From contig NC_134026.1 in NCBI RefSeq assembly GCF_964204645.1, positions 7,959,950 to 8,023,949 of the forward strand: 64,000 nt of DNA. The letters run 5' to 3'. Position 1 is the first letter of the stretch. Each line of letters begins with the position of its first letter. The translations under genes were made by a program, and so were the position numbers. Shown piece by piece: positions 36,379 to 64,000 of this stretch. Source of the DNA: Tubulanus polymorphus. Lineage: Eukaryota; Animalia; Nemertea. The notes beneath the pieces were generated by a model that saw only the letters and a list, made by a program, of their open reading frames with translations, made no database searches and was not told the origin of the DNA.

Positions 36379-39300
36379 TACAGGGTCCCCATGGTGCCTT
36401 TTCTAGGATATAAAATATGGGATTTAAGCAGATGACCGGGCGCGTTCCTGAATGCGCTTGGATTACCCGAACAATCCAAGAAACGATCGCGCAGCGAGAC
36501 ATCATCGACTGATATCAGCCCCAGTAATCTACAAACAGCCAAAAAAGATAGAATTTTGGCGTGTATGGATTCGCCTGTTACAACCGTGTAATTTATGTCC
36601 ATTACAAATAACTGTCAATATTATGATGAGAGTTCATTTATTCGCCATGAAAACAAATTTTCGTTATGTGCTTTTAACATACGAAGTTGTAGCAAAAATT
36701 TCGATAATTTCGACGCCTATATAAATAATTGTATTAAGACTAACTTTTCAGTCATTGGTCCCACTAAAACGTGGACCAGGGACAATGCTGATAATAACAG
36801 ATTATATAATCTATCTGGATACAATAATATATTCAAGAACCGCGATCGCGCAAATGTCGGTCGGGATCACGGTGGCGGAGTAGCTATTTAATATAAAAGT
36901 ACGCTGAAAGCCAAAGTTAGAACCGATCTTTCGGGAAATACATCTATATTTGAATCGCTTTTTATTGAAATTGACTTTGGAAAACAGAAAAACAAAATTA
37001 TCGGTATAGTCTATAGACCCCCAGACCTTAGTGTAAATGATTTTACTAATGAATTTAAATTACTTTTAGATAAAATCAACAATGAAAACAAAATAGTCTA
37101 TATTATGGGAGATTTCAATATCGATTTACTTAAACTTGGTACCCATAAGCAAACTGAAACTTTCTTCGACAGTATTACGACCTATTCATTATTCCCATTG
37201 ATAAATAAACCCACAAGAATAAATAACATTTCAGCTACTTTCATTGATAATATTTTTTGTAATGATTTAGATAGTGTATTTACTAGTGGCATTCTCTGTA
37301 CAGATATTTCTGACCATTTCCCGGTTTTTACTGAGAGTGATCAGTATGTAACTACGAAAAGCAATTTAGCAGCAAAATTCCGGAATTTTAACTGCGGTAA
37401 TAAGGCTTGCGTCTAGCTTGCGACTGGTCAGCAATTTATAACAACTATGATCCTCAATTTGCTTATAATTCATTTATGTCTAAACTTTCAGCGTTGTATA
37501 ACGAATGTTTCCCTTATTTCACTTGTAAATCTACTAGTAAAAATAATCTTAAGCCTTGGCTTACAAGTGGTTTGTTAAAATCAATCAAACGTAAGAACTG
37601 TGTGTACAAGAAATCTTTTTCAAGTCCCTATAATACAGAAAAAAAAGAGCGATACCTGTCCTATAAACGCATTCTGACAAGATTACTTAGGCAGGCGGAA
37701 AAGCAATACTACGATCATAAATTTTTATTAGCAAAAAACGATATGAAAAAACATGGAATACTATTAATAATGTAATTGGGAAAAAATCATGTAGAGATAA
37801 ATTACCTGATGTTTTTCTTTTAAATGATACCAAAATATCTGGAAAACAAAATATAGCTGATGAATTCAACTCCTTTTTTGTAAACATTGGTCAGAAACTA
37901 GCAAGTTCAATACCAAATTCAAAAACTCACTTCAGTGTTTATTTAGAGGATCCTGCTCGTGAAAATTTTTTCTTCTTTCCGACAGATCCTAATGAAATAT
38001 GTGAAATAGTCAAATCATTTTCTTGTAAAAAAGGTATCGGTGTTGACGGTATCTCTATAAAGGTAAAAAAAAGACGTAATTGATATTATAAAAACTCCGT
38101 TGGCTCACATTTTTAACTGCAGTCTCCAAACTGGAATCATTCCTGAGGAACTATAAACAGCTCGAGTGTGCCCCATTTTTAAGACAGGTAACACGGCGTC
38201 GTTCGATAATTATCGACCAATCTCGGTATTACCATGCTTTTCAAAAATTCTTGAAAAATTAGTTTTTAATCGCCTGGTTTCATTTTGTGATAAATTCTCA
38301 CTCATAAATCAAAATCAATTTGGATTTAGAAGAAAGCACTCAACAACTTTAGCTTTAGTAAAGATTACTGACGAAATTACAGCTAATATGGATGTTAACC
38401 GTCCAACTATTGGTATATTTTTAGATTTGTCGAAGATTTGTCGAAGGCATTTGATACGGTTAATCACGATATTCTTTTAGAAAAATTATGTCATTACGGA
38501 ATCAAAGGTGTCCCACTAAATTGGTTCAGGAATTATTTAAGTAACAGGACCCAAATTGTTCAATTAGATCATATAAATTCAAAACCTCTGCGTACACATT
38601 CTGGAGTCCCTCAAGGATCAATATTAGGACAACTTTTATTTCTATTATACATTAATGACTGCACTAAAGCCTCCAACATTTTGAAATTCATCTTGTTCGC
38701 AGATGATACGAACTGTTTCCTTAGTGATTGGAACATCAAAGAATTATGTAAAACTTTTAACTCAAAACTATCAAAACTGGTTGATTGGTTTCGTGCCAAT
38801 AAATTGTCACTGAATGTAAAAAAAAACCTTTTTGTTGTATTTGGTCAATTATGCCAATATTAGATTATACATCGATGGTAAAAGAATCAATCAGGTCCAT
38901 GTTACAAATTTTTTGGGAGTTTTAATTGATGACAAGTTAACTTGGAAGTACCATATTAAATCGGTTAGTAAAAAAGTTGCCTGTAGTATAGGCATTTTAA
39001 ATAGAATAAAAAATAAACTACCGTCTAAATCCTTAGTGACTTTTTACTTTTCTATGATTGACTCCTATCTCCAATATTGCAATATGATTTGGGGTACAAA
39101 TTCTGGAACTATTTTGAACCCACTTGTACTATTACAGAAGGGAGCTGTAAGATTAATTTCTCATTCAAATTATCTAGCACATACAGATCTCATATTCAAA
39201 CGTTTAAAAATCTTGAAACTCCGTGATATTAATGACTTACAACTAGCTGTTTTCGTTTATAAATTTGCCAATTCCTTACTGCCTGCATCTTTCAACGATT

Positions 39301-41113
39301 ATTGGAGATCAAAATTCCAAATACACCGACGTAATACTAGGAAAAAGTTCGATTTAGAAATTGATAGATTCAAAACCCTAAAACGAAAATTTTCGGTCAA
39401 ATTGTCTGCACCAATCCTCTGGAATAAGCTACAAAATTCGCTTAAAGAAAAACCTAGTATTTATTCGTTTCGTCTTAGCTATAAACAAGAAAATTAACTT
39501 TAATAAATTATTTGACGCCTGCGAAAAAATGTAGAATTTCTGGTATAAGCTAATGTGGAATTGCAAATTTGAAATCGAAGTTTTAAGAAATTTCGGGAAT
39601 TATGAGATTTGGCGATTGGGTAGATGATACAGTCTTCGACTGGTCTAATAAAAAAAAAAATTGTCAACTTCTGACTTCGATTCACTTTTGCCTCTAAGCT
39701 GGTCTGCAACTTCATTGCCTCCATGGTTGAAGAAAGAGCTCTTCTGATGTCTGCTTCATCATGACTTGAGCATATATCGTGTAGCCAGCCAGCCCGGTCC
39801 TGGGGCCCGGTCTGGCTGTCACTTGATATCCTAGACTTGAGTCTGAGTAGAAGTAGACATTGTCATATAATTAACTTATTCATGTTATTCTGTATGAATT
39901 ACCCGTGTGTCTTGTATTTTCTTATTCTAAAATTTGTAAATGCATTGATTTTTGGAATTTTATCCCGGAATTTCAATGTAATAAGGATCAATAAAGTATT
40001 GAATTTAATTGTCACCTTATACACATGCCATCAGTGGACGCGGAGCCGTATATGACAGCTATGCTATTATAAATTGCTAATCTCATGAAACCTGCATACG
40101 TCTAATATCGAACATACTTTCTAAAACATTTGAATATTGAAATTATATGTTTACACGTTTTTATATAGACCGCTTGTAGCCGCCGATGAAATTCACGCCG
40201 GCCCAACTCAGATCGTAGATAGCTTCGTCATTCCACTAGCATCCCCATGTCAGGGTCTGACTTTTATATCAGACTTCCAAATCGTGTATACATCCGCCAT
40301 TTAACCGAATAATCCGATTTACTTATCATTTCTATTTATCCCTGCCGCCCCTGATATAATCATACATCCTTTACTATTACAATACGTCTTCTCATGATAT
40401 TCAATGCGATATAACATTTCAACGTTCAAATAGAGGTCATTACATAATCCCAGGGAGCCATTCTACATCTTTATCAATAATATTTTGCCAAATAGCTTGT
40501 ATGTGTACACATAAACCTGTGACGTTTTGCACATCGATTTACGGTTGTCGTTTGTAAAATGACGCTGAATGGTTATCATTGTTTAGGTTTCATAATGGTA
40601 ACGTTTTATAAGGCGTCAAAAAACTGAAGTTTTCCTTATAAAGCTATTTTGTGAGTTGTTTAGATGCTCCAATTATTCCTAATTCATCTATTTCTGTGTG
40701 GTGTGTTATTATGAACATGTGATCGAGTGTGTGTGAGGGGTGTGTGTGTTTCCGCGTGCATGCGTACGTCTGAGTGTGGTTTGAATGTAAGGGGCCTTGC
40801 ATGCATAAGCATTCTTTTGCTTCTCCAAGACCCTGCCCTTTTATTACAACATGAATATCACCATGGACGTATAGACTAGACCTTAACACTAGTCTATGCG
40901 CCCATGATGACACTTATATATAACAGTACCCTTGTATTCTTTTATAAAACTTTGTATGTATAATCGTGTTGTAATTCGAGGGAAAATAAAAGTTATTATT
41001 ATGATAACAAAAGTTTCGACAAAACCTATAGAATTTAAACATATAAAGGCACCCGGTCATTTGTTTAAATCACGTATATTATATCCTAAACGGCCCCTGG
41101 GACCGCTGGGGCT
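36379..41113. repeat. ~70-bp inverted repeats bracketing the LINE (36379-36445 and 41048-41113); third direct copy at 35560-35610
   Basis: CAG.GTCCC...TTTAGGATATAA.ATA.G.GATTTAA.CA.ATGACCGGG.GC in opposite orientations. Confidence 0.75.
36500..40005 (+). mobile_element. Decayed CR1-group (Crack/Daphne/L2-like) non-LTR retrotransposon, ORF2 only
   Basis: APE endonuclease motifs (NIRS, GGGVAI, YRPP, GDFN, PTR, DNIF, SDH) and RT motifs (YRPISVLP, QFGFR, DLSKAFDTV, GVPQGSILG, FADDT) across several frames; AATAAA at ~39990; no ORF1 seen. Confidence 0.93.
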
Positions 41114-48398: not shown

Positions 48399-50344
48399 GT
48401 AACAAAAAAAGCGGAAGTAACGTCAGTGTTAGGGAACTCGTGGGAATTCGAGTAAGGTGATATGATGTGAAAAGGGCTGTTTTGAATTTCGTTTTATTAA
48501 GAAAAAAAGATCGTCGAAGCGTATGAAACCGGGCGTTTATGATATCTTGTCAAAAAAGTCAGAGCGTGACCTACATATTCCTCTCCGGGTCAGATTGTGT
48601 AACAAAACTGACAAAATATTGAAGCTGCATCTTTATCATTGTCCACAGACATCAATTAAATTGGTCGAGTAGTTTTCGCTCAGTAACAAAATTAGTCCAG
48701 CATTCAAAATTCGAGAACTCTAGTGGGAATCAATAACCTACATGACTAACCAGTAATATGGCAGTAACAGTCATTGAGAATTACAGAAACTTTTACTGAA
48801 CTCGCTAATATATCATCGACAAAATGTGTGTTACCTAACTTTTTTGTTCTGTGTATATTTGTTCTTCAAAAGTGTACGTTGTACCTATACTCTGTTTGTA
48901 ATTCAAGTATATAAACCAGTTTTTGTGCTCCTTTGGAATTTCTTGAATTTTACTGTGGAGCAATAAATTTAACGTAATATTTAAATTCTAATTGTATAAT
49001 AGATTTTGATGTCGTCTGCAATGTTATTCCCGTGACAAGGAAAACTCGACCTATTTACAGTGAAAAAACCCGAACTTTTCACAGGGAACTTCAAAAACAA
49101 CCCTAAACAATTGAATGGGTGCGGGGTCACGTGTTTGAAATTGACCAATCAGAAACTTCCATGGTGACATATTCTAGAAAAAAAACAAATCTTTTACGAA
49201 AATATCAAACACGAGATATTCAAAACTATTCAAAAAAGGTTGCAGCCCGTCGTGCAATAGGCAGACGGTTATTTGGAAAGAAAGTATTTGTTTAGGATTT
49301 ATGATAGACAATTGTTTGGGGGGACTAAAACATGAGCTAACAAAACTTACCCTGAACAAAGAACAGAACCAGTAAAAACATAATCTGTAACTGATCCATC
49401 CTGTTGTAGAGTCGTTAGTCACCTGTAGAACTGCCGTCGTCTGTCTCCAGTAAAACTGCTCGTCTGTCTCCTGTAGAACTGTCGTGTCACCAGTAGATCT
49501 GCTATCCTATATCACCAGTAGAATTACTGTCTTCTGTCCACGATAGAACTGGATACCTGTCACCTGACGCCTTTAAATTCCTGTTTGAAATATAGCGACA
49601 ACCAATGAATTGAAACAGAACTGTGATGTGCAGTTTTACTCGTAAGCGCTGAATACAGGCATTTATTTCATTGAGAAATAAACATTACAAACTCATACAA
49701 ATGAATTACATTATATTTGATTCAAATTCAAGCCTGAATTCAAAATCAAACCGAAATCGTGTGATTACTGTAAGGGTGATCTCATGCTCCTAGTTCATGT
49801 CAAAAGATCAGTACTTGCGATGAGAGAATTAAGTTGCTTAGGAGTAACAAGCCATGTTTAAACTGCCTTGGCAAAAACTTATTTATCGTCTTGTCATTGT
49901 ACGTAGGTTCTGAATTGAAGGTGAGCCAGGTAGCCGAAATGTTTTACTTGTTGACAATTCCGACGACTTCAAAAACAAATTCTGTTAAGACAGAATTCAG
50001 AATTAATTCCTTAGATAAATAAACTAGATTGGAAATTAAGCCATTGATGGTCCATAAGATTTTAACACCACTTAAGAACAAACTCTCACAGCGTTTTCTG
50101 AATTCATTTGCAAGATTTATAGTTAACTGTGAATAATATTAAATTCGCCAAAATCTACCACTATTTACTCAGATTTTGTGAAAGTTTACATTGTGAAATG
50201 TAAATGCAACTACATGTGATAACCATTCGACTTACATCAAAATCAGTTGGAAGCTTTTAGCAGAAGTAATTGGGAAAGTAGGGTTTCAGATCAGAGGTCG
50301 AAGGTCGAACACTCATCACCACAAGTAATTTTTTTTCCTTATAA

Positions 50345-50551
50345 ATGGAAGAGAATAAGACAGAACAAATTGATGTTAATGAAAATCAATATCATTGTCC
50401 ATATTGTAAAAAATACATTGATAAATCAAATAAACCTTACATGGAAAACGTTAGAAATTATATTGATTCACTAGAAATAAAAGATACAATTGAAATTTTA
50501 GAAATATTACGCAGTAAAATTGTGACACACATAAACAGTGAGTGCGCGTAA
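50345..50551 (+). CDS. Small hypothetical protein (single CPYC motif)
   Basis: ORF starts at TAAATG with a duplicated promoter block. Confidence 0.6.
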   Translation: MEENKTEQIDVNENQYHCPYCKKYIDKSNKPYMENVRNYIDSLEIKDTIEILEILRSKIVTHINSECA

Positions 50552-50690
50552 CAACAGCTGCGCGTGTGTTAACTGTACCCGGATAAATAGATGCTGTGAG
50601 GCTTGGGTGAGAACGGTTAATAGCGTGCTTGTTATATACAAGGGGAAGTAATCCCCACTCATCACCACAAATAATTTTTTTTCCTTATAA

Positions 50691-51017
50691 ATGGGAGATA
50701 GAAAAGCATTCTTAGCAACAATAAATAACAGAATAAAACCAGCAAAAAAACAATTTGAAATAAAAAAGTTAGTTGATGTTACAAAAGAAATTGAACATAA
50801 AATATTGAAATTAGAAAAGATAAAAACTAAATATGGAGAGAAAGTATCAGCTAATTTAAGCTACTGTAATGTTAGTACATCGCGAGAATTTAAAGTATTT
50901 TTACCTGATAAATGGGTTTCATTGAGTACAGAGGAATTAAAAGATTTAGAAGGATTTAAAATAATATATCATGGAAAAAATGAAGACGGCCATCATGATT
51001 TAGAAATTGTTGATTAA
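50691..51017 (+). CDS. Small Polinton-type protein, possibly OB-fold/ssDNA-binding
   Basis: KLEKIKTKYGEKV...FKVFLPDKW...IIYHG pattern recalled from invertebrate Polintons; TAAATG start; fold assignment is inference. Confidence 0.6.
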   Translation: MGDRKAFLATINNRIKPAKKQFEIKKLVDVTKEIEHKILKLEKIKTKYGEKVSANLSYCNVSTSREFKVFLPDKWVSLSTEELKDLEGFKIIYHGKNEDGHHDLEIVD

Positions 51018-51178
51018 ATTTAAAAAAATAAATTAATAAAAATAATGAATATCTAGAATCCGAAATGACTTATCTGGACAATTTAATTGCTCCGCATAGA
51101 TAGACAAAAGTAGTGAGATATTCAATTAATATTCAATTAATTAAAAAAAATTATTTTTTTTGCTTTTTTTCTAAAATT

Positions 51179-51547
51179 TTAATCCATTTTTTTTATTATC
51201 AATTTTGGAATTTCAGAAGTATTTTCATTTTTGATAGCAGTTGTTTCAGAATTATTAATATCATGAATTTTATTTGATTTCTTATACCAATTACACCCAA
51301 TCAAAATGAATACAATTACAAATCCAAATGTAAAATATAGACATTTATCAAATATTCTATTATCAGAAGGAGTAGAAATAACAACATTTTCACCATTTTT
51401 ATTAACATTTTTATTACTTATTTTTTCTTTTACAGCTTTTTTATATTCTTGTGATTTAATTCCTAATTGCCGAGACCATTCAATTTGTTTCTGAGTTCTC
51501 GGTTTTTTCTTCACAGTTAATTCCTTCACTTCTTTCACCTCGCTCAT
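51179..51547 (-). CDS. Basic protein with one transmembrane helix
   Basis: KKKPRTQKQIEW N-terminus; LYFTFGFVIVFILIGC; TAAATG start. Confidence 0.7.
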   Translation of the reverse strand: MSEVKEVKELTVKKKPRTQKQIEWSRQLGIKSQEYKKAVKEKISNKNVNKNGENVVISTPSDNRIFDKCLYFTFGFVIVFILIGCNWYKKSNKIHDINNSETTAIKNENTSEIPKLIIKKMD

Positions 51548-52086
51548 TTATTATAGAAATATTTTTACTTTCAATATTTGAAAATGTTATAACCCCAGTT
51601 GATAATAATGTCATAAATCCACCTAATTGAAACGATAAATATCCAATCCATTTATTTAATTCAGTCATAACTAAATAATCATTTTTTAAATCGGAATATA
51701 ATCTATTTTCATCTTCAATTGGTAGTATATAATTACATAATTTACTATAACCTTTTACTACATTTTCTGATATCGCGTCATTAATTCTAGCTGTTCTCGC
51801 GGCTTCATGAATCTTAAATAATCTAATAATTTCAAATGATTTCATTGTATCTAATTCATTATAAGTTAAATTTTTATCGACAAAATTTTTTACATTTTCC
51901 AGATGCTATTAATATTTCTAATTGATGTTTGCAATAAAGATAATATTCATAATTATTATTTGTTGTAACATTATTTAAAGCACCATCATCTGGAATTAAT
52001 TTGTTTTCTGTTATTCCTAAATCATCTAAAGTTTTTTCAATTGGAACATCACCATTTTTAGATTTTATTTTCTTTTCACCTACCAT
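51480..52086 (-). pseudogene. Hypothetical protein with C-terminal hydrophobic segment, +1 frameshift
   Basis: ORFs 51874-52086 and 51480-51845 join (CKNFVDKNLTYNELDTMK) if one A is removed from the A6 run near 51890. Confidence 0.7.
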
Positions 52087-52117
52087 TTATATAACAAAAA
52101 AATTAGTTGTGATGTTG

Positions 52118-52368
52118 CAACTAGAATTTAACTAGAATGTAACTAGAATTCAACTAGATTAACAAGCTAGTTGAAATATTGTTGTTTTTGTTTATTTCTA
52201 GTTAATTCTAGTTGATTTTTGTTTCAACTACTAACAACTAGAATTCAACTAGAATGTAACTAGAATTAAACTAGATTAACAAGCTAGTTAAAATATTGTT
52301 AAATCTAGTTGATTTTTGTTCCAACTACCAATAACTAGAATTCAACTAGATTAACAAACTAATTGAAT
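52118..52368. repeat. AACTAGAATT-based direct/inverted repeat array inside the Maverick
   Basis: Two ~120-bp higher-order copies built from CAACTAGAAT units and their inverse. Confidence 0.85.
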
Positions 52369-52977
52369 TTAAATAAATTCATATTTAAATGGGTGTTGTA
52401 ATCTAAATAGTAATTTTGATCTTTTAATATTTTTCAACTTATCCATATATTCATTATGTAAATCATGTGGAATAATATCATTTTCCTCAAGCGCATTTTT
52501 CATCGATTTTCTATCTTTATTGTAGAATAAAACTAGAAATCTAATGTTTTCTCTAAAGTCTTTAACAATTGAATTATATTTTTGATTTAAAACCCAAGTT
52601 GTTATCCCAAAATGTCTCCCATAGAAAGCTAGATAACATAACTCACTTTCTCTAACTTTTGAATCATGTAAATTTGCGCAATCATCTATAATAAATAATG
52701 TATTTGATCCTTTATAAATATCAATTGCTATTTTAATACAATTATTTGAATTTTCTTTTACTGTTTTAGGATCTAATATAATAAATTTATTATTTCTAGT
52801 AATATTTCTATCATAAGTTTGATTAAATTCATACGTTGGGCAAAATAATACTATATTATCAAAATAGTTTTCATAAACAGTTTCTAATAAATTTAATATA
52901 AAATAAGTTTTTCCACAATTTGTTACGCCAGAAATTAACATATTATGAGGCTCAAATATAAATAATTCCTTATTCAT
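52369..52977 (-). CDS. A32/FtsK-like genome packaging ATPase
   Basis: Walker A GVTNCGKT, Walker B LFIIDD, GRH motif, then VLNQ. Confidence 0.93.
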   Translation of the reverse strand: MNKELFIFEPHNMLISGVTNCGKTYFILNLLETVYENYFDNIVLFCPTYEFNQTYDRNITRNNKFIILDPKTVKENSNNCIKIAIDIYKGSNTLFIIDDCANLHDSKVRESELCYLAFYGRHFGITTWVLNQKYNSIVKDFRENIRFLVLFYNKDRKSMKNALEENDIIPHDLHNEYMDKLKNIKRSKLLFRLQHPFKYEFI

Positions 52978-54106
52978 TTATATATTTTTAATTTTACTTG
53001 ATAATATCCATTCATTGAATTTATCTGGCCATCCTACCCATTTTACTAAAGAATATTTTTTTCTTTTAATAGTTTTTGTTTTTAATACTTTTTCAATTTT
53101 ATATTCTTGTTCTAGATTTTCAGTAGTTAAACTTAATTCTTCTTCGTAAAAGTAGCCATCAACTTCTTCACCATCTAAATCTTCTAATTTATAGACATAT
53201 GGTTTTGTTGTTATTACCTTTTTTATTTTATATATTACTCTAGTAAAATTTCGATCGTATCCTTTATCAAATATCTTTTTATACTTAGAAATTCTAACAT
53301 TTTGACCAACTTTAAATTTAGGTTCACCAAAATCATCTACAAGAAATACTCCATATAAATTATTCCAAACAATTTCAGCATTTTCAGGTTTTCTAGCATC
53401 AATAGGTTTCATTCCAATAGAAGAATGATAAGAATTATTATATCCTTCTATCAATTTTGGTAAAACATCAATCCATTTAAAAGTATTATTTGCTGTAAAA
53501 TATTTCCACATTCTTGTTCTTAATGTTCTATTAAATCGTTCAACAACTGCTGCTTTTTTATCTGATTTTGTTGAAAAATATTTAATATTATGATTATCTA
53601 AGAGTTCATGAACAAGTGAATTATCAAACTCTTTTCCATCATCAAATTGTATTTTTTTCTGGTTTTAGTTTATCATCCGAAAGAAATTTTCTTAAAACAT
53701 TTGATGTTTGTACAGCATCTTTTCTATAAAGTGGGAAGCTCCATACATAACGACTAAAAATATCAATTATATTCAATAACCACCAATAATCATCATTATC
53801 TTTCTTAACATTTTTCATATCAATTAAATCTCCTTGCCACTGTTGATCTACATAACTTACCATAGTTTTACGAGTTTTATATTTTCTAACAATTTTTTTA
53901 TGTGTTGTATATGTTGGTTGTTCTAACATAAATTCATTTATATCTTCATATTTAACTAAATTTTGTGGGATTATCTTATCTAATTTATCTTGTTTTACTT
54001 GACGCCATATATTTTTGGTAGAAGAATAAGCAACCGAACTCTCAGGGTTGTAATATAAATTTCTTAAATATTGGTCCGTAGTATTAGGAGTTTTTTTACC
54101 TCCCAT
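52978..54106 (-). pseudogene. Retroviral-like (rve) integrase with C-terminal chromodomain, +1 frameshift
   Basis: WQGDLIDM, IDIFSRY, (QF)DDGKEF, KAAVVERFNRTLR, YKIEKVL...LVKWVGWPDKFNEW; frames join after removing one base from the T7 run at 53652-53658. Confidence 0.93.
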
Positions 54107-54136
54107 TTATATATCGTTAATTTTAAATTTATATTT

Positions 54137-55399
54137 CTAATATTGAATACTATCTAACTGTGAATTTACAATATTTAATTGTGCGTCAGATATAATATAA
54201 ATGTGCATTTTGAAATTTTTGTCTCCTTTTTTCTTTTTCATGAATAATTGTATTCCATCTTTAGTGTTCTGTAATTTCTTCCCAGAACCATGTAATGAAT
54301 TATCCTCTGTTGTTCTAAAATCTAACCATAATGCATATTTATTACCGGTATAATAATCAATTTGATTAATATTACAATTTTCAAATGATTTTACTTTTTC
54401 ATTCATAAAATGTTTTCTAATTTCTGGCCATTGATCAATCATTCTCATTCCTTGACAAAATATTTTATTTGCTATTCCTTCGATAGTTATTTCAACTTTT
54501 GTTATTTTAGGATTATAATAATTATCTACCTTTATTGCACCATTAGAATATGTTGCAATGGTAAAAAATATTAATATACCTTCTTGGTATTAACTATTAA
54601 TAGTTCTTCTTGGGAAGTTAATATTCTCATTAATTATTTCATCATTTGCATTAATAGTTACAGTTTTAAATTTATCAATATAATCATATAATAATGAAAA
54701 TCCTTGATTGTATTGAGTTTGAATTGTGCTAGCAATATTTTCATTAGTTACTGTGTTATATTCTAAACATATATTCGATAATTTATAACCCATATCTTTA
54801 ACAACGCTAGATAATACAATTTCATTTACGGGAGCAAATGTTATCTCAAATATAATATCTTCTTGAATTGCATATTTATATAAAGGTGAATTGTTATTTA
54901 TCAATTCAAAGTCTAATGGAATTTTATATTTGCTTCCATTAATCTTTTTAATCAAATTATCTGTGGCACGAGTTACTATTGCGTCATTAGCTCCTGATCT
55001 TAATTTATTATGGTTTTCCGATTGAATACCCTGAAATATCATATTATTTCTATTTTCTTTAGTTAACCATAAATCTTTATAATGCATAAATAAATTATAA
55101 TCATCTAATGAGAAAACTGTTTCTGGACCAATCTTTATTGTTAACTTTTTAATCAAATATCTTCCAACATTATCAACAACATAATTGTTATCATGACCAG
55201 TTACTTTTATATCGGCTGATAAATAAATACTATTTGGAACATAAAAAGTATTTTGTGTTAATCTAGGAATTCTAACATATAAAGTTTCATCGGGATTAAT
55301 ATTTGAAGGGTTATGAGTAATTATATGATGTGATCTTTCTGCTTTAATAGCATTAAATATTCTAGAAATCTTAGAAGGACTTATATAACTCCCACTCAT
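54137..55399 (-). pseudogene. Major capsid protein (double jelly-roll), in-frame 15-bp insertion with stop
   Basis: HIITHNPSNINPDETLYVRIPRL, YKLSNICLEY, NFPRRTI..GILIFF, YYNPKITKVEITIEG, YALWLDFR..DNSLHGSG, YIISDAQLNI; both ORFs are in one frame. Confidence 0.85.
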
Positions 55400-55439
55400 T
55401 TATTTAACAAAAAACTTAATTATTTATTTTTGATCATGG

Positions 55440-56878
55440 TTACTTGATATTTTTTGATATCATGTTTACTAAACCAAAGATAATAGTACTTACAACTGTA
55501 ATTAAAAATAGAATAATATGTTCAGCGGCAAAGTTAAGAATATTCCCAGCAGATTTCAATATAAAACCAACAATTGATGCAATAACTCCTGGCAATACTG
55601 CAGCAGATTTTTTAGATAGTTCCCATAAATATTTTGCTAATTTCTTTAAACCATCCTTAACTTTATCTTGTATAGAATTATTATCATTCGGGGGTTTATC
55701 CGGTTTATTGGGAGTAGGAGTAGATTTCAAAGCATTTGATATTGCTAAACCAATTGTTGTAGTAACATAGTTACAGCTGCTAGAATTGAAAGAATTGTTA
55801 TTCCTTCTAATTTAAATAATAACTTTATTCTATCTTTCAGTGATATTTCAGAATTTGGTTTAATCAACAAATCTTTAAAAATAACTTTTAATCTATTTAT
55901 ATTATAATCATATGATTTTAATAATAATTTAATTTCTTCTTTTTGTACTTCTAAATTATCTTTTAAATTATTAATTTCTTTTTCTAAACGTAATTCTTTT
56001 TGTCTATATTCTATTTCATCAATTACTTGATGATCTAAATCAGACTTTAATTGTTCTATTTCTTTATTTTTATCAGTTAATTCTTTTACCAAATACATAA
56101 TTTTTTGATCTCTTATACTTTTATTATGTGCAATTTTATCAGATGCAAGTCTTATACTAATAATTTCTCTAATTGCTTTATCAGAAAATATATCTAAATC
56201 TTCTAATTCTTGATCTGTTGCATCAAGTAATCCATTCGGTAAAAGTTTTTCAATTGGAACTTTATTTGATTTAAGTTTACTAGTTTTGGAAGTTATATTC
56301 TGTTCAGATGTTGTTTCTGTTTCTGATTTCTTTTTGATTATTTCAAATAATTCATTAATTCTTTGTTTAAATACGTCTATATTATCATCTATTTCTTTTT
56401 GTGTAACATCAGTTATTTCATTACTATTACTTATTATTTTAATTCTATCTGGTTTTAATTTTTCTAAAGTTGATTCTGATAACATTTTAGTTTTATTATT
56501 TTTATAAGTGATATCAATATAATAATCACCTTTCAAACGATAATAACATTTACCATTATCTAAAAATTTTAATTGATCTGCTAAAAGTCCAACGTCTTCA
56601 TCATTTATGTTAAGTTTAGATTTTTCAATTAAATCTTCTAATTAAGGTATTTTGTTTAAATTATCTATATCTTGTTTTACTAAATCTGGGTCTAAATTTT
56701 CAGGATTTAATTGTGATTCTGCATTTTTAATATAATCAAGCATATTCAAATTATTATTATATTCTGGCTCATTACCATCATTAAAACTTGTTTCATCAAA
56801 ATCAGGTGGTTGTTCATCAGTTATACCAGGTTCATCAAAAGGATCCATTCCAATATCTTCTCCACCTTCTACATCCAT
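55440..56878 (-). pseudogene. Long acidic/coiled-coil protein with C-terminal transmembrane/amphipathic helices (one stop, one frameshift)
   Basis: ORFs 56642-56878 and 55745-56536 are in frame across a TAA; frameshift at ~55765 joins to ...LPGVIASIVGFIL...IILFLITVVSTIIFGLV. Confidence 0.75.
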
Positions 56879-56893
56879 TTATATAAAAAAAAA

Positions 56894-58335
56894 TTAAAAT
56901 TTAAAATATAATATTCCTCCGATTACAATTCCTATACAGGTTATAGCTAATTTAGTATTTTCATGGGATTTATTGTCATTATCAGTTTTAATTATATCAT
57001 GTTGAATAACACCGTGTGGGTGCCATACGGCACCATTATCAGTTTTAATATCACCATGTGGGTGCCGTACGGCACCATTTTCTGTAGTATTGTAATCTTT
57101 TATTTTGGAATCATTATCCAATTTAATATTCTTAGTTTTAGTTTCTGTTGATTGAATATGTTTTTTATTTTTTTTACCTTCCATTAATTTTGGAGCAGTG
57201 ATAATCTTTTTATTTATATCATTTAACCCAAATGAATTATTTATTGTAGCAGTTTTAATTAGATTATTATAACCAATTATGTTTCCCATCTTTAATACTA
57301 AATCATTAGAAATAATTAATAGATTAGGGCCTATACAATAATTTAATCTAATATGTGATTTATCTAAATAATTTTGATATCTTATAATGTTTTCTGGAAT
57401 CGATCTATTTTTATCATTATGTATGGAATCTTCAAATAATACTTTGAATTGTTTCTGTGTATCAAATGATGTATTCAAATTTCCAATTATCGGTGATCTT
57501 GTTTCAACTTGCGCACCTAAAATACATATCAAATAAGTTCTAATAGATTGATTTATTCTTTGTATACCTGATTTTGTAAAACCTTCATTATTTTCTAAAA
57601 TTAAATAAACCCAACCATTATTGTTTTCTTGTTTTAAATTATCATAAAATTTCGGTAATTTATTGAAATTTAATGTTTCTAAATCCTTTGTTTCTATTTT
57701 ACCATAACCTAATTTATTATTATAGATATTATAAAAGCTATTAGATGGTATGGGAAGTGCACAATATTCTGCAATCTTTTTAGGGCAAGGAAGTGATCTT
57801 ATTGTTCCAATTTTTGTTCTAAAATCAGAATTATTTATATCTATATTAAATTCATTACAAATTTTATAAAACTTTGATGAATTAATATTATATCTAATTC
57901 TTTAAAATATCTTGATCCTGGTAAAGCGCACTCTAATTCATTTAATATTATTCTGATTTGAAAGTATGTATGAAATCTAAATAAACTTTGAATTAATTTA
58001 TATTTAGAATTATTCAAATGATCATTCCAACTAATTCCACAACCTGTTGTTGCACAATAAACAGCAAAATTTAATTGGTTCTGCCAATACTTCATATTAG
58101 ATTTTAATAACCATTGTTTTTCATCTTTCAATTTTTTAAAATTAATTAAATATACATGAAATATATTTTCCATCTTTGCATTAAAATTATTAGTTTCAGT
58201 AACATAAATTTCTAAATTAGTTAATGAATCTAAAACTTCATTTCTATATGTAATATCTTTATTAAAATCTATTGCTGGAATATTATATTTAATTGATTTA
58301 TTATATTGGAAAGCTTTTGGAAAACTATCTGCCAT
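56894..58335 (-). pseudogene. Conserved Polinton hypothetical protein with C-terminal TM anchor (frameshift ~57890)
   Basis: WQNQLNFAVYCATTGCGIS, FHTYFQIRIIL; the alternative frame is open through GFTKSGIQRINQSIRTYLICILGAQ to the TM tail. Confidence 0.75.
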
Positions 58336-58351
58336 TTATATAATTAAAAAA

Positions 58352-58786
58352 TTAATAATTTATTAATTCTTTTAATAATTTATCTTGTTCTTCAACTGTT
58401 ATATGACCATTTAAACTTATGATATAATCTAGTGTGTTCTTTAATTTATTAATTTCTTTTATATTAGTTTTAATTTTTTCTTTATTACTTTTTATATTTA
58501 ATTTTGAACTTATACCAGTTAAAACACTTGAACTTAATCCTAATACGCCAATTGATATAGCCAAAGGTGTTAATGGACTGAATATTGCTAGAAATGTTAT
58601 TACAGAACTAATTGTAACCGAACCACTAATAATCAAATAATATATAATTTTACTTTTTAAATATTTTTTCTTTTTTATCTTTAAGTCACTTTCAAATTCT
58701 AATATTTGTTTTTCTAAATATATTTTTAATTTAGTTTTATTTATATCATGAGGAATGATATCAATACTATCAACTTTATCTTCCAT
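58352..58786 (-). CDS. Two-TM membrane protein
   Basis: Two adjacent hydrophobic helices flanked by basic/coiled segments; TAAATG start. Confidence 0.75.
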   Translation of the reverse strand: MEDKVDSIDIIPHDINKTKLKIYLEKQILEFESDLKIKKKKYLKSKIIYYLIISGSVTISSVITFLAIFSPLTPLAISIGVLGLSSSVLTGISSKLNIKSNKEKIKTNIKEINKLKNTLDYIISLNGHITVEEQDKLLKELINY

Positions 58787-58806
58787 TTATTTAGCAAAAA
58801 AAATTA

Positions 58807-59228
58807 CTAATTAGTAAACTTATAAGCAACAAATATAACAATAACTGTTCCACCTAAAATCCAAATTATTTCATATTTCTTCTGTTCATTACTTGGGATA
58901 TAATAATCTGATAATTTAGGTTTGTATAGATGTAATTTTTCTTTATTGGTTACCGCGTTATATAAACCCATTGCATCATCAACTGATTGAAAATCTCTAT
59001 GTGAAATCTTCTGATCATATAATTCCTTGTTAATATAATCCATATAGTTTGTCTCTTTTCTCTATATTCTTCCGCAGCTTTATTATATTTCTCTAACGCT
59101 AAGTTATGTCTTCTTTGTTCTCCTAATGAACTATTTTTATCAATATGTTTAAATAAATAACCACCACCAGTAAATGCCAAAGCGTTAACAATTGCTGATC
59201 CTATAATAGTTATAATTGCAGAAGCCAT
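58807..59228 (-). pseudogene. Membrane protein with N- and C-terminal hydrophobic helices (frameshift ~59050)
   Basis: MASAIITIIGSAIVNALAFTGGGYLF...RHNLALEKY joins MDYINKEL...IIWILGGTVIVIFVAY. Confidence 0.72.
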
Positions 59229-59252
59229 TTATTTAGTAAAAAAATTATGCAT

Positions 59253-59474
59253 TTATATGGGAGGAATATATTTTTGTTTTTCTAAATAATCAATAGTTAA
59301 ATTAGATAAAGTAATTGCTAATGTTAAATTTAAAATATCATTTATATCAAATCTATCAACATTAACACTTCCCATTTTGAATACTTTTTTTAATACCATT
59401 GAATAACCAACAGTTCCAACAGATAGTAAGGCGCCATTATATAATCCAGTTATTATCCACTTATTATCACTCAT
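59253..59474 (-). CDS. Small hydrophobic protein
   Basis: 73 aa with two hydrophobic stretches, DYLEKQKYIP end; TAAATG start. Confidence 0.72.
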   Translation of the reverse strand: MSDNKWIITGLYNGALLSVGTVGYSMVLKKVFKMGSVNVDRFDINDILNLTLAITLSNLTIDYLEKQKYIPPI

Positions 59475-59831
59475 TTATTTATCAAAAAAATTACTATCAT
59501 CAAAATATTTAGTTAACTTATTTATGATTAATTCAACATTTATTTCATTACTAGTTTCATTTGTATATATTTCAATTATTATTTTTTTAATATCATCGAT
59601 GATAAAATCTTCATCTAATTCATAAAATCTTAAAGATTCTCTAATTAAATTAGTAATCTTTTCTACATTTAAAGTTTCTTTATCTATTGTTGTTTCATAC
59701 TCAAATGTTATTTCATTAGAAAATGCAATATTTTTAATATGTGTAATTACATCATTAACGTTAAATTTCATTTCTTTCTCACGTTTAAAATCATACCCAA
59801 AACATATACTCGGTCCAACAGTTATATTCAT
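59475..59831 (-). CDS. Hypothetical acidic protein
   Basis: 118-aa ORF with T-run/TAAATG start; its stop abuts the next ATG. Confidence 0.65.
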   Translation of the reverse strand: MNITVGPSICFGYDFKREKEMKFNVNDVITHIKNIAFSNEITFEYETTIDKETLNVEKITNLIRESLRFYELDEDFIIDDIKKIIIEIYTNETSNEINVELIINKLTKYFDDSNFFDK

Positions 59832-59847
59832 TTATATAATGAAAAAA

Positions 59848-60603
59848 TTACTCTTTACATCTTATAACTAATTCATAAATTACAGGAAAGTTATTCAAAT
59901 CAATTAAATAACCATTATGATTTCTTATTTCTAATTTAAAATTATTGAAATGTGGAATACAAGGTTTGAAATCACATTCAGTTAAATTATAATTTATTTG
60001 AGTTCCAAATTGTTTAACATTTTTTAATGGTAAAATATTTAATAAACCAGAATTACAAATTGTATCTTTAGTTGCTTCAAATGTTTTTGTTGGGTCAATT
60101 AAATTACAATAAATATAGAAATGTGTGTAAGGTATTATATTTGAGCTACCTTCTACGTTTCCAGTAACAATACGCGGTTTAATTCCTAACATTTTAGCTA
60201 TTGGTTTGTTTACCATAAATTTATTTTGTTCATTGGCTAACTTTATTTTAATTTCATCAGAACTATCACTTTTTATAAATCTAATTGAAAATTTATCTTC
60301 ACTTTCAAGTTTTAGTCGTGCTTTCCGATTAATTTCTTGGGCTAATGTTTCTAAATTATATAATCCTGGTTTTAAAAATAGATGAAACCATTTATTTTTA
60401 TTTCCAATATGAATTAAAAAGTCTCTATGTTCAAAAGTTTTAGCCGTTATATTATAAAATGAGTTACATAAACTTATATTAACTAATTTTAAATCAACAC
60501 AATTCTTAAATTCCCTATCTAATTGTATTAGTAAATTATGTGATTTATAATTTGTAAGTTTTCTAGAATCAACAAATATTCTGTATTCTTTTAATTCTAC
60601 CAT
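59848..60603 (-). CDS. Minor capsid protein (penton, single jelly-roll)
   Basis: LKPGLYNLETLAQEIN, YIYCNLID, LLNILP, FKLEIRNHNGYLIDLNNFPVIYELVIR are typical Polinton mCP motifs. Confidence 0.82.
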   Translation of the reverse strand: MVELKEYRIFVDSRKLTNYKSHNLLIQLDREFKNCVDLKLVNISLCNSFYNITAKTFEHRDFLIHIGNKNKWFHLFLKPGLYNLETLAQEINRKARLKLESEDKFSIRFIKSDSSDEIKIKLANEQNKFMVNKPIAKMLGIKPRIVTGNVEGSSNIIPYTHFYIYCNLIDPTKTFEATKDTICNSGLLNILPLKNVKQFGTQINYNLTECDFKPCIPHFNNFKLEIRNHNGYLIDLNNFPVIYELVIRCKE

Positions 60604-60671
60604 TATTTATAACATAAAAAAATTACCGCTCATCACTAAAAATTAATTTTAATAAAATTTTTCCTAAATAA

Positions 60672-61947
60672 ATGGATGAGAAGATAGCATGCGAAATTTG
60701 TGGTGAACTTCTAAGAAAAAGTAATATGGCTCGACATATGAAAAAACATGATGAAAATTATAAACCCCCTAAACTAAACTGTCCAAAATGTAATAAATTA
60801 TTCTCAAGAAATTATGTTAAAAAACATTCAGAGAAGTGTAGAATTAATGGCGCAACGGCTAATGTTGTTAGTAATGAAAGTAATAGTAATTCTGCCGAAG
60901 TTGAACCTGAAGTTATTTGGAAAAGACCTTTCTTATTCTATGATAAGGATGATATAAAAGATCATTTCTGTGAGCCTTGTCGAATGAAATTTAGTCCTGA
61001 CAAATATAGAAGATTGGGAGAATCATCAATTTCGTAAAGAACATATAGATAAAATTTCTAATAAATTTGAAACTGAATTTAATGAAAGAAAAAATAATTT
61101 ATTAGAAAAAATAAAATATGAGAAAACGTTACCAGATAATAAAGAAACAGTTGAAAAGTTAGAAAAACAATATAATGAATTAACAAGAAAAACATATTAT
61201 TGTAAATATTGTAAATTGATTATTACAACAAGTAATTCAAATCTACATAATAGAACAATAAAACATAAAGAAAACGTAAGAAAATACCAAGAGCTTAATG
61301 AAGATCTATTACCAATAAATTATAAACAAAAATGCCCACAATGTATTTATGCGACCTTACGACAAGAAGGTACTGTGTTATTTTGTGTTGATTGTGGATG
61401 GCAAAAGAATTTATGGGGTGAAGAAAAAACTAGACATTTTCTCATAGATCCAAAATTAAATTATCTAGATGAAATTTTTAAAATATTTTCTATAGAAGAT
61501 CATACACCAGAATATATGCAATGGCTTGAAAAAATGAAAATAATAGAAAATAAAAATGGTGAAATAACTAAAAAAGATATTATAAATACAATTATTCCGT
61601 CAACATTTAACACAAAACAAAAGAAAATGTATTTATATTTATTATTTAACGATTATTATGAAAAACCTAAATTAACAGAAGAAGATATGGAAAATATAAA
61701 AAAAATATTCAAACAAATATTAATGTATCATTTGGAAAATAGAATAACAGATTCAATAAATTATGAATTCTTTTTAAATAAGATTGTAAATTATTTAAAC
61801 CTAGATATTATAATTCCATTTGACGAATTAACAAACAAAAAGAAACAAAGAGAGCGAGATGAAATGTGGAACAAGATAGAACTTTATTTAAATGAAAAAA
61901 AAATGGAATGGAAGAAGAACCTAAACAAATTATACAAGAACAATTAA
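60672..61947 (+). pseudogene. C2H2 zinc-finger array fused to a VLTF3 (poxvirus A2-like late transcription factor)-like domain, frameshift ~61000
   Basis: CEIC..HMKKH, CPKC..HSEKC, CEPC..HQFRKEH, CKYC..HNRTIKH; then CPQC...FCVDCG zinc ribbon and INYEFFLNKIVNYL...KKQRERDEMWNKI. Confidence 0.7.
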
Positions 61948-61999
61948 ATGAAAATGAAGAAGCCAATAGTGATTTCGAGTTTGATGATATAGATCCATT

Positions 62000-64000
62000 T
62001 TAATAACCATAAGGTAATGTTTTTATACCATCATCTGAAATATGCCTTTTATCATCAAATGGATTCAAACTAGTTTTTTCAGCTTCATTAATGTACATCT
62101 CGTGATTTTCTGATCTTAAACAATTCATTTTATCTTTCATTACAATTGATTTATATAAACACTTTATATAATCTTGAAATTCTATATGTTTATCAACCAC
62201 ATGTTTTGTTATTCCTTTTAACTTTTTAGCTTCATGATCTTTTGTTCTGTAACTATACATTTTACTTCTTATCCCAACAAATTCAATCATTTCATCACCC
62301 CCTAATTCATCTTTAAACTTACTAGGAATCTTTTTATTATCATTGCTAAATAGTTCATGATCTTTGGGATAATTGCTAAAATCAAAATGATGTTTTAATG
62401 TTTTTAAGTCTTTTGTTATATCATTTGTCTTGATTTTTAGTATGTAGGCGTCGGTATTTTTTTGGATTAATGGGAACCCAGAATTGAATGTTCCATCATC
62501 TGTTGATAAATCATAAACATAGTCAGTTGGGTTATATATTTCAAATAAATCTTTAACTTCTTCTGTTAACTCATTTTCTACATGTCTTAAATTAAAGCAA
62601 TTTGGTTTAGATTTAATCAATCCAATATTCATATTAAATCCTAATGAACTGCATAATATATTCAATCCTGATATAGCAACTTTTCCTTTTTGAGCTAAAG
62701 ATATTGTTTTGCGATTTTTGAAACTTTTTGAACCATCTGCAGCATAGAATCCAATGAAGAACCATTTTCTTAAATTATTTTTTGCATTTAATACATAATC
62801 TGGAACTATCTTTTCTTTTGTTGAAGTATTACTTTTAACTATTGCATGAATATAGAATTCATCATTATATTTTATAGCAAACTCTTTAGGATTATTTACA
62901 AGTATTCTATAAACTGCTGTTGATTTCATAACATCCATGATTTTAAATGTTTTATTTGGATAAACTTCTTCACAGAATTTCTTTATTCTTTCTAATAATT
63001 TTAAGTCTTGATTGCATAAATACCAGCAATATTGAGTGCGATTAACATAATTATACACACCTGCTGAACCATCACCCATGAAAAATCCTTTGATAAAATA
63101 TTCTTTTTCTTCTAATGTTTCGGGTTCTACATTATAAATATTATCAATAATTTCATCAAATGAAATATGATTCATTCTTTGGAAAAATCTTTTATGCAAT
63201 AATTCATCTCCAATTTTTATATCAGTTGGTTTTATTTCATCACCATTTCGTTTAATTAAACTATGATCTTCTGTAACATCTACAAATGCTAATTTAGTTT
63301 TTAACTCTATAGATTTTCTTATTTGTTTTATGCCTAATAATATTCTTTAATTTTTTCCATCCATTTCTTGTCCAAACATCCATTAAATCATTTATTTGTA
63401 TTAATTCTTTTTCTCCATATGAAATATAACATTCATTTTGTTTTGGAATTATTTCTGAAATTCTTCTTATCAATATTTTATTATTACATTTTAATAATAT
63501 TGGGGTGTCAGCTGTTACAGAATCAAAATATAATATTTCAATATGCTTTTCCCCAAAAAGTGGTTGTAAAACATTATAATAAAAATCATACATTAATAAT
63601 TTTGATACTTCTAAAACAGTCGAACCAATAAATATAGGTTTATTAAATTTCATTGATGTTCTTTTTAATTTAACTGCTGTTAAATAATCTTCAAATCTTT
63701 TATTTCCTAAATGTCTAGGACTTGATTGTAGGTGTCTTAATCTTTCAGAATTATTTACTAATTCAATATCATTTCTATTTCTAATATTTTCGCATGTTTT
63801 ACCATAAAAACTATTATTCATTAATTTGAAGAAATCTTTTTCAAAATCTGTTTTTGATATGGTTCTCTGTTGAGTATTGAAATCTATATATTTTTCTAAC
63901 CACTTCGATTGATTAAATTCAATATATCTATGTACTTTCTTTAATTTCATTCCTTGTTTTAGATAAAATTTTAACATTCTATAATGAACAATATAATTGT
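62000..64000 (-). pseudogene. polB: Protein-primed family B DNA polymerase (C-terminal part), intein-containing; N-terminus beyond window
   Basis: FFKLMNNSFYGKTCENIRNR, KPIFIGSTVLEVSKLLMYDFYY, YFD|TD, KFKDE, FVGIRSKMY, KLKGI, KTSLNPFDDKR, TLPYGY. Confidence 0.95.
62456..63521 (-). mobile_element. Intein with LAGLIDADG homing endonuclease in PolB (355 aa after removing one extra base)
   Basis: Block A SVTADTPILL, block B VDVTEDHSL, LAGLIDADG motifs FIKGFFMGDGS and FFIGFYAADGS, block F YVYDLSTDDGTF, block G LIQKN followed by extein Thr. Confidence 0.93.

Follow-up and report, generated by a model that had tools for sequence, protein, structure and literature searches.

The best-described relatives of the gene considered here are the A2/VLTF3 late transcription factors of poxviruses (PF04947 + PF08792). 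VLTF3 has been treated as diagnostic of the Nucleocytoviricota (PMC11253617), and one subgroup of polintoviruses is also reported to carry it (PMC11131425), as are MELD viruses and polinton-like viruses (PLVs) (PMC8502044; 10.64898/2026.06.19.733378). Here we examine a homologue encoded by a Maverick/Polinton that lies at one end of a 64,000-nucleotide stretch of the genome of the nemertean Tubulanus polymorphus (RefSeq assembly GCF_964204645.1, contig NC_134026.1, positions 7,959,950 to 8,023,949 of the forward strand; hereafter the window). This gene joins four non-canonical zinc fingers to a VLTF3 domain, within an element in which many genes start with a motif resembling the poxvirus late promoter.

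In vaccinia virus, late promoters have TAAAT (in most cases TAAATG) across the start codon; the tenth base upstream is a conserved T with other Ts around it (PMC11980589, PMC5294985). TAAATG also occurs in salmon gill poxvirus (PMC4542343), and the TAAA is described as being read directly by the vaccinia polymerase (PMC12917281). A late promoter shared between an integrated element and its helper has been described for endogenous virophages, namely mavirus and endogenous mavirus-like elements (EMALEs) with Cafeteria roenbergensis virus (CroV) (10.1101/2025.10.09.676808). PLVs have been observed in entomopoxvirus occlusion bodies (PMC11296320), while for animal Mavericks no virion is said to have been seen (10.64898/2026.06.19.733378).

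Results

A single gene interrupted by a frame break

The gene lies on the forward strand of the window and is made up of the following parts.

60672 to 61037 (+): 5' piece of the finger-VLTF3 gene, with fingers 1 and 2 and the CxxC half of finger 3
60988 to 61947 (+): 3' piece of the gene, with the His half of finger 3, finger 4, the four-cysteine (C4) ribbon and the VLTF3 helical domain
61333 to 61395 (+): C4 zinc ribbon of VLTF3/A2 type (CPQC...CVDC), its four Cys invariant in alignments
61396 to 61905 (+): VLTF3 helical domain, predicted to form a single cyclin-like repeat
61759 to 61785 (+): NYEFFLNKI motif, in the tail of the gene
61858 to 61878 (+): DEMWNKI motif, also in the tail

An earlier reading of the window, made from its letters alone (the sequence-only reading), had two open reading frames (ORFs) joining through one frameshift near 61000 into a protein of about 425 amino acids, and the ORF map, sequence reads and an intact relative all bear this out. 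The two pieces (121 and 319 amino acids from stop to stop) lie in different frames, overlap at 60988-61037 and jointly hold about 425 codons; the ribbon, the C-terminal tail motifs and the gap of 68 bp to a divergent ORF, penton-like by its motifs, are all at the places claimed.

The search for an intact fusion in sister copies, which the same reading had suggested, was successful. Among reads and contigs aligned over 59400-62400, 169 of 180 reads from dataset X6 differ in length from the window at the break, as does the entire depth of the covering contigs from X1 (9) and X2 (4). X1 and X2 come from one study, which may include the source of the window, and X6 from a separate one; X5, a marine metagenome run, is without coverage at the break and yielded scattered short pieces only, which were not used as evidence of habitat. 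P0063, a natural protein of 697 amino acids, carries four fingers, ribbon and tail in a single ORF, is 44% identical to the window's 3' piece over 316 amino acids and is collinear with the 5' piece too. It was the one protein returned, out of 51 candidates, by a search with the first two fingers; a homologue search with the 319-residue piece gave none among proteins of 175-559 amino acids, a size range below that of P0063. The 5' piece also aligns collinearly with positions 11054-11482 of L001, one of the related loci described below (48% identity over 56 amino acids). Because most sister reads differ in length at the break and P0063 is intact in one frame, the two ORFs are one gene, and the fusion is real and conserved in relatives; the break could be either a mutation confined to the window copy or an assembly error.

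Homology of the C-terminal domain

By sequence comparison, the C-terminal 200 or so amino acids are a divergent VLTF3/A2 homologue rather than a member of the Pfam family, and we regard the identification of the gene as VLTF3 as secure, with very little doubt. The first matches in the ESM Atlas were Pox_VLTF3 clusters for both the window domain (0.96) and P0063 (0.93), which counts as a lead only, the recognition value of 1916 being under the 2300 mark.

Two reference sets were assembled. For giant viruses, 120 loci gave 69 ORFs of at least 280 amino acids, reduced to 17 by a redundancy filter (6 of 6 checked were PF04947). For poxviruses, 40 viral_contigs loci were retrieved with a degenerate pattern on a 10-residue motif of the window protein; 38 were A2-type ORFs of 224-270 amino acids, two short chance frames were dropped and 15 sequences were kept (3 of 3 checked were PF04947). 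Using hhalign, a two-sequence Maverick profile aligned with the 17 giant-virus VLTF3s at Prob 95.6 (E 1.3e-8, 181 columns) and with the 15 poxvirus A2s at Prob 97.3 (E 2.2e-11, 187 columns), while 19 shuffled or reversed controls reached Prob 1.6 at most against the giant-virus set. The four Cys of the ribbon are invariant against both sets and the C-terminal core residues are kept too.

When 164 Maverick frames were compared with 685 poxvirus frames, the VLTF3 domain was the sole strong match (E 5.6e-10). An ORF of L001 that weakly matched poxvirus A2 (E 4e-4, 164 queries) was treated as a chance match. A search of the viral_contigs collection with the VLTF3 domain alone gave no locus, as did one with the capsid alignment, and a sequence search of the PDB gave chance matches only. 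The window domain found no match in three giant-virus records that hold VLTF3, a result that is unpaired with the poxvirus test and was not used as evidence.

Similarity scores place the domain nearer to poxviruses than to giant viruses. Best-domain scores from hidden Markov models (HMMs) were 39.6 bits (poxvirus) against 10.2 (giant virus) for the window and 31.1 against 2.0 for P0063; masking of both selecting motifs lowered them to 16.1 against 4.5 and 11.4 against -6.5, with shuffled sequences reaching 7.9. In blastp searches of 32 references, the 12 best matches were all from poxviruses, for window and P0063 queries alike. The VLTF3 domain is thus pox-leaning by these sequence scores, and the tree considered in the Discussion does not settle its origin.

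A structure model guided by an alignment (giant-virus rows + P0064) reached a predicted local distance difference test score (pLDDT) of 86. Its best match in a Foldseek search of BFVD was cowpox A2 (E 7e-6, template modelling score 0.63); VLTF3s of entomopoxviruses ranked third and fifth, and many more VLTF3s followed. In a structure comparison against the PDB (VIA), cyclin- and TFIIB-type chains filled most of the top rows (Z 5-6.5), and the model has helices for only one cyclin repeat. The domain is predicted to combine a TFIIB-like ribbon with one cyclin-like repeat.

The homology to VLTF3 put forward in the sequence-only reading is therefore upheld by the ESM Atlas, hhalign with its controls, HMM scores and the Foldseek top hit. 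That reading presented VLTF3 only as a core gene of nucleocytoplasmic large DNA viruses, a description that leaves out its report in a polintovirus subgroup (PMC11131425).

A pox-like motif at gene starts

A repeat search brought to light a block that stands before many genes of the element, comprising a T-run and a TAA that directly abuts the start codon (TAAATG). Examples are as follows.

60647 to 60674 (+): promoter-like element of the VLTF3 gene, with an A-rich block, a T-run at 60658-60662 and TAAATG over the start codon
55402 to 55427 (-): T-run and TAAATG before the major capsid gene
50342 and 50688 (+), and 52089, 56881, 58338, 58789, 59231, 59477 and 59834 (-): further TAAATG starts

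Fourteen of the 25 ORF starts of the element (ORFs of at least 65 amino acids), the capsid gene's among them, show TAAATG, compared with 26 of 502 other ATGs (p 5e-11); the figure for host DNA in the window is 1 of 57. Neither of two trivial sources accounts for this: only 2 of the 14 window sites are stop/start junctions, and AT-richness alone was set aside in that the motif persists at 36-44% GC in L006-L008.

Relatives were sampled as 24 loci (L001-L024) fetched by capsid alignment. In groups drawn after the per-locus counts were known, TAAATG opens 31 of 37 starts in the close relatives L001-L005 and 27 of 37 in the distant relatives L006-L013 and L017, but none of 15 in L014-L016, L018 and L019, a natural control group with another promoter type, and none of 20 in L020-L024, which are degraded weak matches. 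The L001 orthologue of the finger gene is preceded by an arrangement of A-rich block, T-run and TAAATG like that of the VLTF3 gene. Among the reference viruses, TAAATG stands at 79 of 202 starts in poxvirus loci and at 24 of 220 in giant-virus loci (ORFs of at least 100 amino acids). A T nine bases before TAAAT is present at 67 of 72 sites that open an ORF and at 32 of 107 others.

Judged from these counts, the Maverick motif is pox-like and not identical to the poxvirus late promoter, and it probably acts as a promoter. An additional TTTTAATAAAA block stands upstream of the T-run in the VLTF3 gene (60647-60657) and in the finger genes of L001, L002, L003 and L005. This block is possibly a second promoter class; vaccinia intermediate promoters are described as A-rich at a similar distance, and A2L as an intermediate gene (PMC11980589).

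Four non-canonical zinc fingers

The N-terminal region holds four zinc-ligand clusters ahead of the ribbon.

60690 to 60749 (+): finger 1, C-x2-C-x11-H-x3-H, zf-C2H2 below cut-off
60780 to 60839 (+): finger 2, C2HC type, C-x2-C-x11-H-x3-C
60969 to 61044 (+): finger 3, split by the frame break, with CxxC at 60969-60980 and the His pair in the second frame
61201 to 61266 (+): finger 4, U1/matrin type, C-x2-C-x11-H-x5-H, PF06220 E 3e-7

In intact P0063, finger 3 reads C-x2-C-x14-H-x5-H, so that no finger has the canonical x12 spacing (all are x11 or x14), one is C2HC and two are H-x5-H. There are no TGEK linkers between the four fingers, and the spacers are long. Against zf-C2H2 (PF00096) the score was 19.2 bits, below the cut-off of 25.2, whereas finger 4 scored 30.5 bits against zf-U1 (PF06220), above the cut-off of 22. 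Spacing, linkers and the zf-C2H2 score together rule out a classical (Kruppel) C2H2 DNA-binding array. U1/matrin-type fingers usually bind RNA or proteins, and comparable U1-like fingers are present in Maverick ORFs that lack VLTF3 (L002, L003, L005).

Of the "four C2H2/C2HC-like fingers" in the sequence-only reading, then, the four clusters stand and the term C2H2 array was overstated. The same reading suggested that the fingers could be aimed, as a DNA-reading array, at CTCATCAC, and this is not supported. The fingers are spaced and non-canonical; in the window, CATCAC comes ahead of four genes among the 14 that start with TAAATG, the VLTF3 gene included, and it stands before no gene start in L001, L002, L003 or L005. 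L001 has the orthologous finger gene. CTCATCAC was rejected as a conserved target on the absence of CATCAC before the gene starts of these four relatives. We infer that the fingers are protein- or RNA-binding tethers and not the part that reads the promoter.

The element and its setting

From about 50300 to the end of the window the GC content is about 24%, against 38% in the host part before it. This block is a Maverick/Polinton: it encodes an A32-like ATPase, an rve integrase bearing a chromodomain, a capsid-like protein and, in its 3' part only, an intein-containing B-family polymerase. Its principal features beside the VLTF3 gene are listed here.

50310 to 64000 (no strand assigned): visible part of the Maverick/Polinton, GC about 24%; its left edge is approximate and its right end falls beyond the window
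52369 to 52977 (-): A32-like packaging ATPase, PF04665 E 1e-12
52978 to 54106 (-): rve integrase with chromodomain, in two pieces, PF00665 E 2.4e-5 (below cut-off) and PF00385 E 9.6e-5
54137 to 55399 (-): putative major capsid protein gene, in two pieces, Capsid_N E 0.0019
59848 to 60603 (-): penton-like ORF of 251 amino acids, divergent neighbour of the VLTF3 gene, 45% identical to an L001 ORF
62000 to 64000 (-): B-family DNA polymerase, 3' part with LAGLIDADG intein, convergent with the VLTF3 gene and continuing past the window

Several genes of the element are fragmented in the window copy. The capsid gene has 54 unnamed homologues, mostly of 411-420 amino acids; its Capsid_N match has E 0.0019, and searches of the PDB and NCBIfam with the capsid profile gave no match. 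Library and PDB searches with the penton-like ORF were likewise without a match. At 60604, just upstream of this ORF, 339 X6 reads depart from the window sequence, and many sister copies carry a different neighbour at that point.

The polymerase piece, whose N-terminal part is beyond the window, shows a KxxxNSxYGK motif and has no Pfam match on its pieces. Its intein (LAGLIDADG_3 E 2.3e-7; intein_Nterm E 5.7e-4) appears inserted in the catalytic YxDTDS-type motif (YFD/SVTADTP ... IQKN/TDA) and contains a frame break of its own (window 62000-64000, -). Homing-endonuclease insertions have been mentioned for the protein-primed B-family polymerases of polintons (PMC11161782).

Smaller features were also noted. 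A 68-residue ORF at 50345-50551 (+) has a CxxC resembling finger 4 (13 of 31 residues identical, E 0.001), and a 43-nt block upstream of it is duplicated at 95% identity before the ORF that begins at 50691. The latter (50691-51017, +; 108 amino acids) is 74% identical to an L001 ORF and has no family match; it may be a single-strand binding protein with an oligonucleotide/oligosaccharide-binding fold. Three imperfect 97-nt repeats, rich in AACTAG, occupy 52073-52383, between the ATPase gene and an ORF at 51874-52086, and 58352-58786 (-) encodes a SLATT-like two-helix membrane protein (PF18142 E 0.0038) that is 78% identical in L001. In L001 itself, a deoxynucleoside kinase (10340-10981, -; PF01712 E 1.7e-31), a type of enzyme typical of large DNA viruses, is divergent from the finger gene. 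In the host part of the window, exons at 159-35335 (-) read by eye as a laminin alpha gene, the element sitting about 15 kb upstream of the first laminin-like coding exon seen, and 36892-39497 (+) holds pieces of a retroelement of the long interspersed nuclear element type, with endonuclease- and reverse-transcriptase-like frames, again recognised by eye.

Discussion

The account we lean towards, with modest confidence, is that this Maverick gene of non-canonical fingers and VLTF3 encodes the element's own late factor, which aids the polymerase of a co-infecting pox-type virus at the T-run and TAAATG motif. A pox-type virus would infect the host cell and its cytoplasmic RNA polymerase would recognise the element's TAAA initiators; the Maverick VLTF3 would act in the manner of TFIIB within the late initiation complex, adapted to the stricter promoter of the element, and its fingers would be tethers. 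On this account a pox-type polymerase would read the motif and the Maverick VLTF3 protein would be active. Because the VLTF3 gene itself lies behind TAAATG, the first round of expression would need helper factors. The element continues beyond the window; in the 13.7 kb seen, no gene for an RNA polymerase was recognised. Capture of a viral polymerase, offered as an inference in the sequence-only reading, finds support here and is strengthened by the element-wide motif resembling the poxvirus late promoter. More tentatively, and short of what we would call probable, a whole clade of animal Mavericks may be endogenous virophages of pox-type viruses, retaining a poxvirus-late promoter ahead of most genes and equipped with a captured, finger-tagged, pox-like late factor that steers the helper polymerase to the Mavericks' own genomes.

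Several observations weigh against this account. Lying behind the same motif as the other genes, the VLTF3 gene cannot be the element's initial switch, and further transcription proteins could be encoded in the rest of the element, beyond the window. Sequence depth at the VLTF3 gene is only about one third of the value at 59400-60100, on the side of the neighbouring penton-like gene, and several relatives that bear TAAATG show no VLTF3 within their short contigs; because of these two observations the factor may be optional among copies. As for homology, Pfam Pox_VLTF3 (PF04947) matches neither the window protein nor P0063, and the whole-sequence score of the window protein against the giant-virus HMM is 3.8 bits, with shuffles up to 4.8. 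The pox leaning is tempered by a tree of 34 rows, without an outgroup, that resolves into three long-branched groups and does not indicate which of poxviruses and giant viruses is the sister; midpoint rooting puts the Mavericks beside the giant-virus set. The poxvirus set was chosen by a motif of the query, the giant-virus set is narrow (QDxIWKKIC motif), and VLTF3s of entomopoxviruses, asfarviruses, iridoviruses, mriyaviruses and PLVs stood outside the sequence comparison. The structure model was steered by a VLTF3 alignment, the single-sequence model having a pLDDT of 40, and its TFIIB and cyclin matches are weak (all Z below 8; best Foldseek PDB E 0.43). Finally, poxvirus loci have the T at the ninth base in 43 of 94 cases and at the tenth in 50 of 94; the Maverick motif allows less variation and is shifted by one base, so the helper could be something other than a known poxvirus.

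Other explanations make different use of the same evidence. In one, which we consider unlikely, the element is autonomous, its TFIIB-like VLTF3 recruiting the nuclear host RNA polymerase II to the T-run and TAAATG motif, and the pox likeness reflects ancestry only. Herpesvirus late factors recruit host RNA polymerase II likewise, the ribbon and cyclin-like architecture resembles TFIIB, the element sits in the nuclear genome with an integrase that bears a chromodomain, and its motif is stricter than the pox consensus. Initiation at TAAA would, however, leave a leader of 1-3 nt, a shortness that poxviruses offset by a slipped poly(A) leader, and if the motif served as a TATA box the start site would fall beyond the ATG. 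Direct reading of TAAA by the vaccinia polymerase (PMC12917281) also speaks for a pox-type enzyme over the host's. A second possibility, which we hold to be decidedly improbable, accepts that the helper's factors read the promoter and casts the Maverick VLTF3 as a dominant-negative decoy that occupies the helper polymerase and cuts helper late transcription, to antiviral effect. Divergence at motifs conserved in giant-virus VLTF3s, an identity to poxvirus A2 of only 20-26%, and the apparently optional occurrence of a factor that is itself behind a late-type motif would suit such a decoy; the ribbon cysteines and C-terminal core residues are nonetheless kept in comparison with both reference groups, and the rigidity of an element-specific promoter would go unexplained.

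We give little credence to the proposal that the four fingers read an element-specific CTCATCAC/T-run motif and so bring VLTF3 to the element's promoters. All four are conserved in P0063 and CATCAC precedes some window starts, the VLTF3 gene's included, but the spacing is non-canonical, the spacers are long and without TGEK, finger 4 is of U1/matrin type, the relatives lack CATCAC before their gene starts, and similar U1-like fingers belong to ORFs without VLTF3. Least credible of all, to our minds, is a compact pox-like RNA polymerase of the element's own, encoded beyond the window, which would dispense with a helper. Yeast cytoplasmic linear plasmids do encode such an enzyme. These plasmids are reported to derive from polintons (PMC11161782), yet neither the 13.7 kb in the window nor 11.5 kb of L001 yielded an identifiable gene of this kind, and typical Maverick size leaves little space beyond the remaining polymerase gene.

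Under the preferred account of a helper-aided late factor, comparison with described systems shows what is shared and what differs. With poxvirus A2, its best structural neighbour, the Maverick protein shares a C4 ribbon that leads directly into a helical domain of comparable length, the two aligning collinearly across some 190 amino acids that include the INYxFFL.KI motif; unlike A2 it is Maverick-encoded, is only 20-26% identical, falls below the Pfam cut-off, adds four N-terminal fingers and is without the poxvirus C-terminal tail. The report of VLTF3 in a polintovirus subgroup reportedly goes back to Krupovic & Koonin 2016. The VLTF3s of polintoviruses, MELD viruses and PLVs are likewise homologues in small Preplasmiviricota elements (PMC11131425, PMC8502044, 10.64898/2026.06.19.733378); they are described as giant-virus or mimivirus-like, and the available text of these sources describes no finger fusion, pox leaning or matching promoter. 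The motif shares with the poxvirus late promoter the TAAAT and G over the start codon and the T-run upstream (PMC11980589, PMC5294985, PMC4542343), and differs in a conserved T one base closer, a near-invariant A before TAAAT and AA at -18/-17; as to the poxvirus-type start site within AAA and the 5' poly(A) leader, the Maverick likeness is one of DNA motif.

Like endogenous virophages, this is an integrated, capsid-encoding element with genes behind a large-virus late-type promoter; those elements belong to the Virophaviricetes, occur in protists and have a known helper from the Imitervirales (10.1101/2025.10.09.676808), whereas the Maverick resides in an animal, has a pox-type motif and its own late factor, and its helper is hypothetical. 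The PLVs associated with entomopoxviruses are similarly polinton-like elements tied to poxviruses, by co-occurrence in occlusion bodies; the main text is without analysis of VLTF, promoters or motifs, and no rve integrase was detected in those encoding PolB (PMC11296320). The literature searched, which did not cover supplements or subscription journals, held no report of a finger-VLTF3 fusion or of TAAATG promoters in Mavericks, and the available text of PMC11161782, 10.64898/2026.10.13.758929, 10.1101/2024.03.23.586382 and PMC10748475 has nothing on Maverick VLTF3 or promoters; either feature may already be in print.

Conclusions

This locus is of interest mainly because a pox-leaning late factor occurs together with a pox-type motif throughout the element, the finger fusion alone being of modest interest. 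A Maverick VLTF3 qualifies the use of this gene as a diagnostic of Nucleocytoviricota, and the combination of factor and motif bears on the transcription of animal Mavericks and on their possible need for a helper virus. Pox-type motif and pox-leaning factor in one element offer a sharp test of helper dependence, and TAAATG provides a sequence marker that would separate helper-dependent clades of Mavericks from the others; it is absent from one related group. If the proposed mechanism is true, virophage-style parasitism would extend to animals and would point to unknown pox-type viruses; if it applies to the whole clade, it would imply that a pox-type virus awaits discovery in the host, probably a marine invertebrate.

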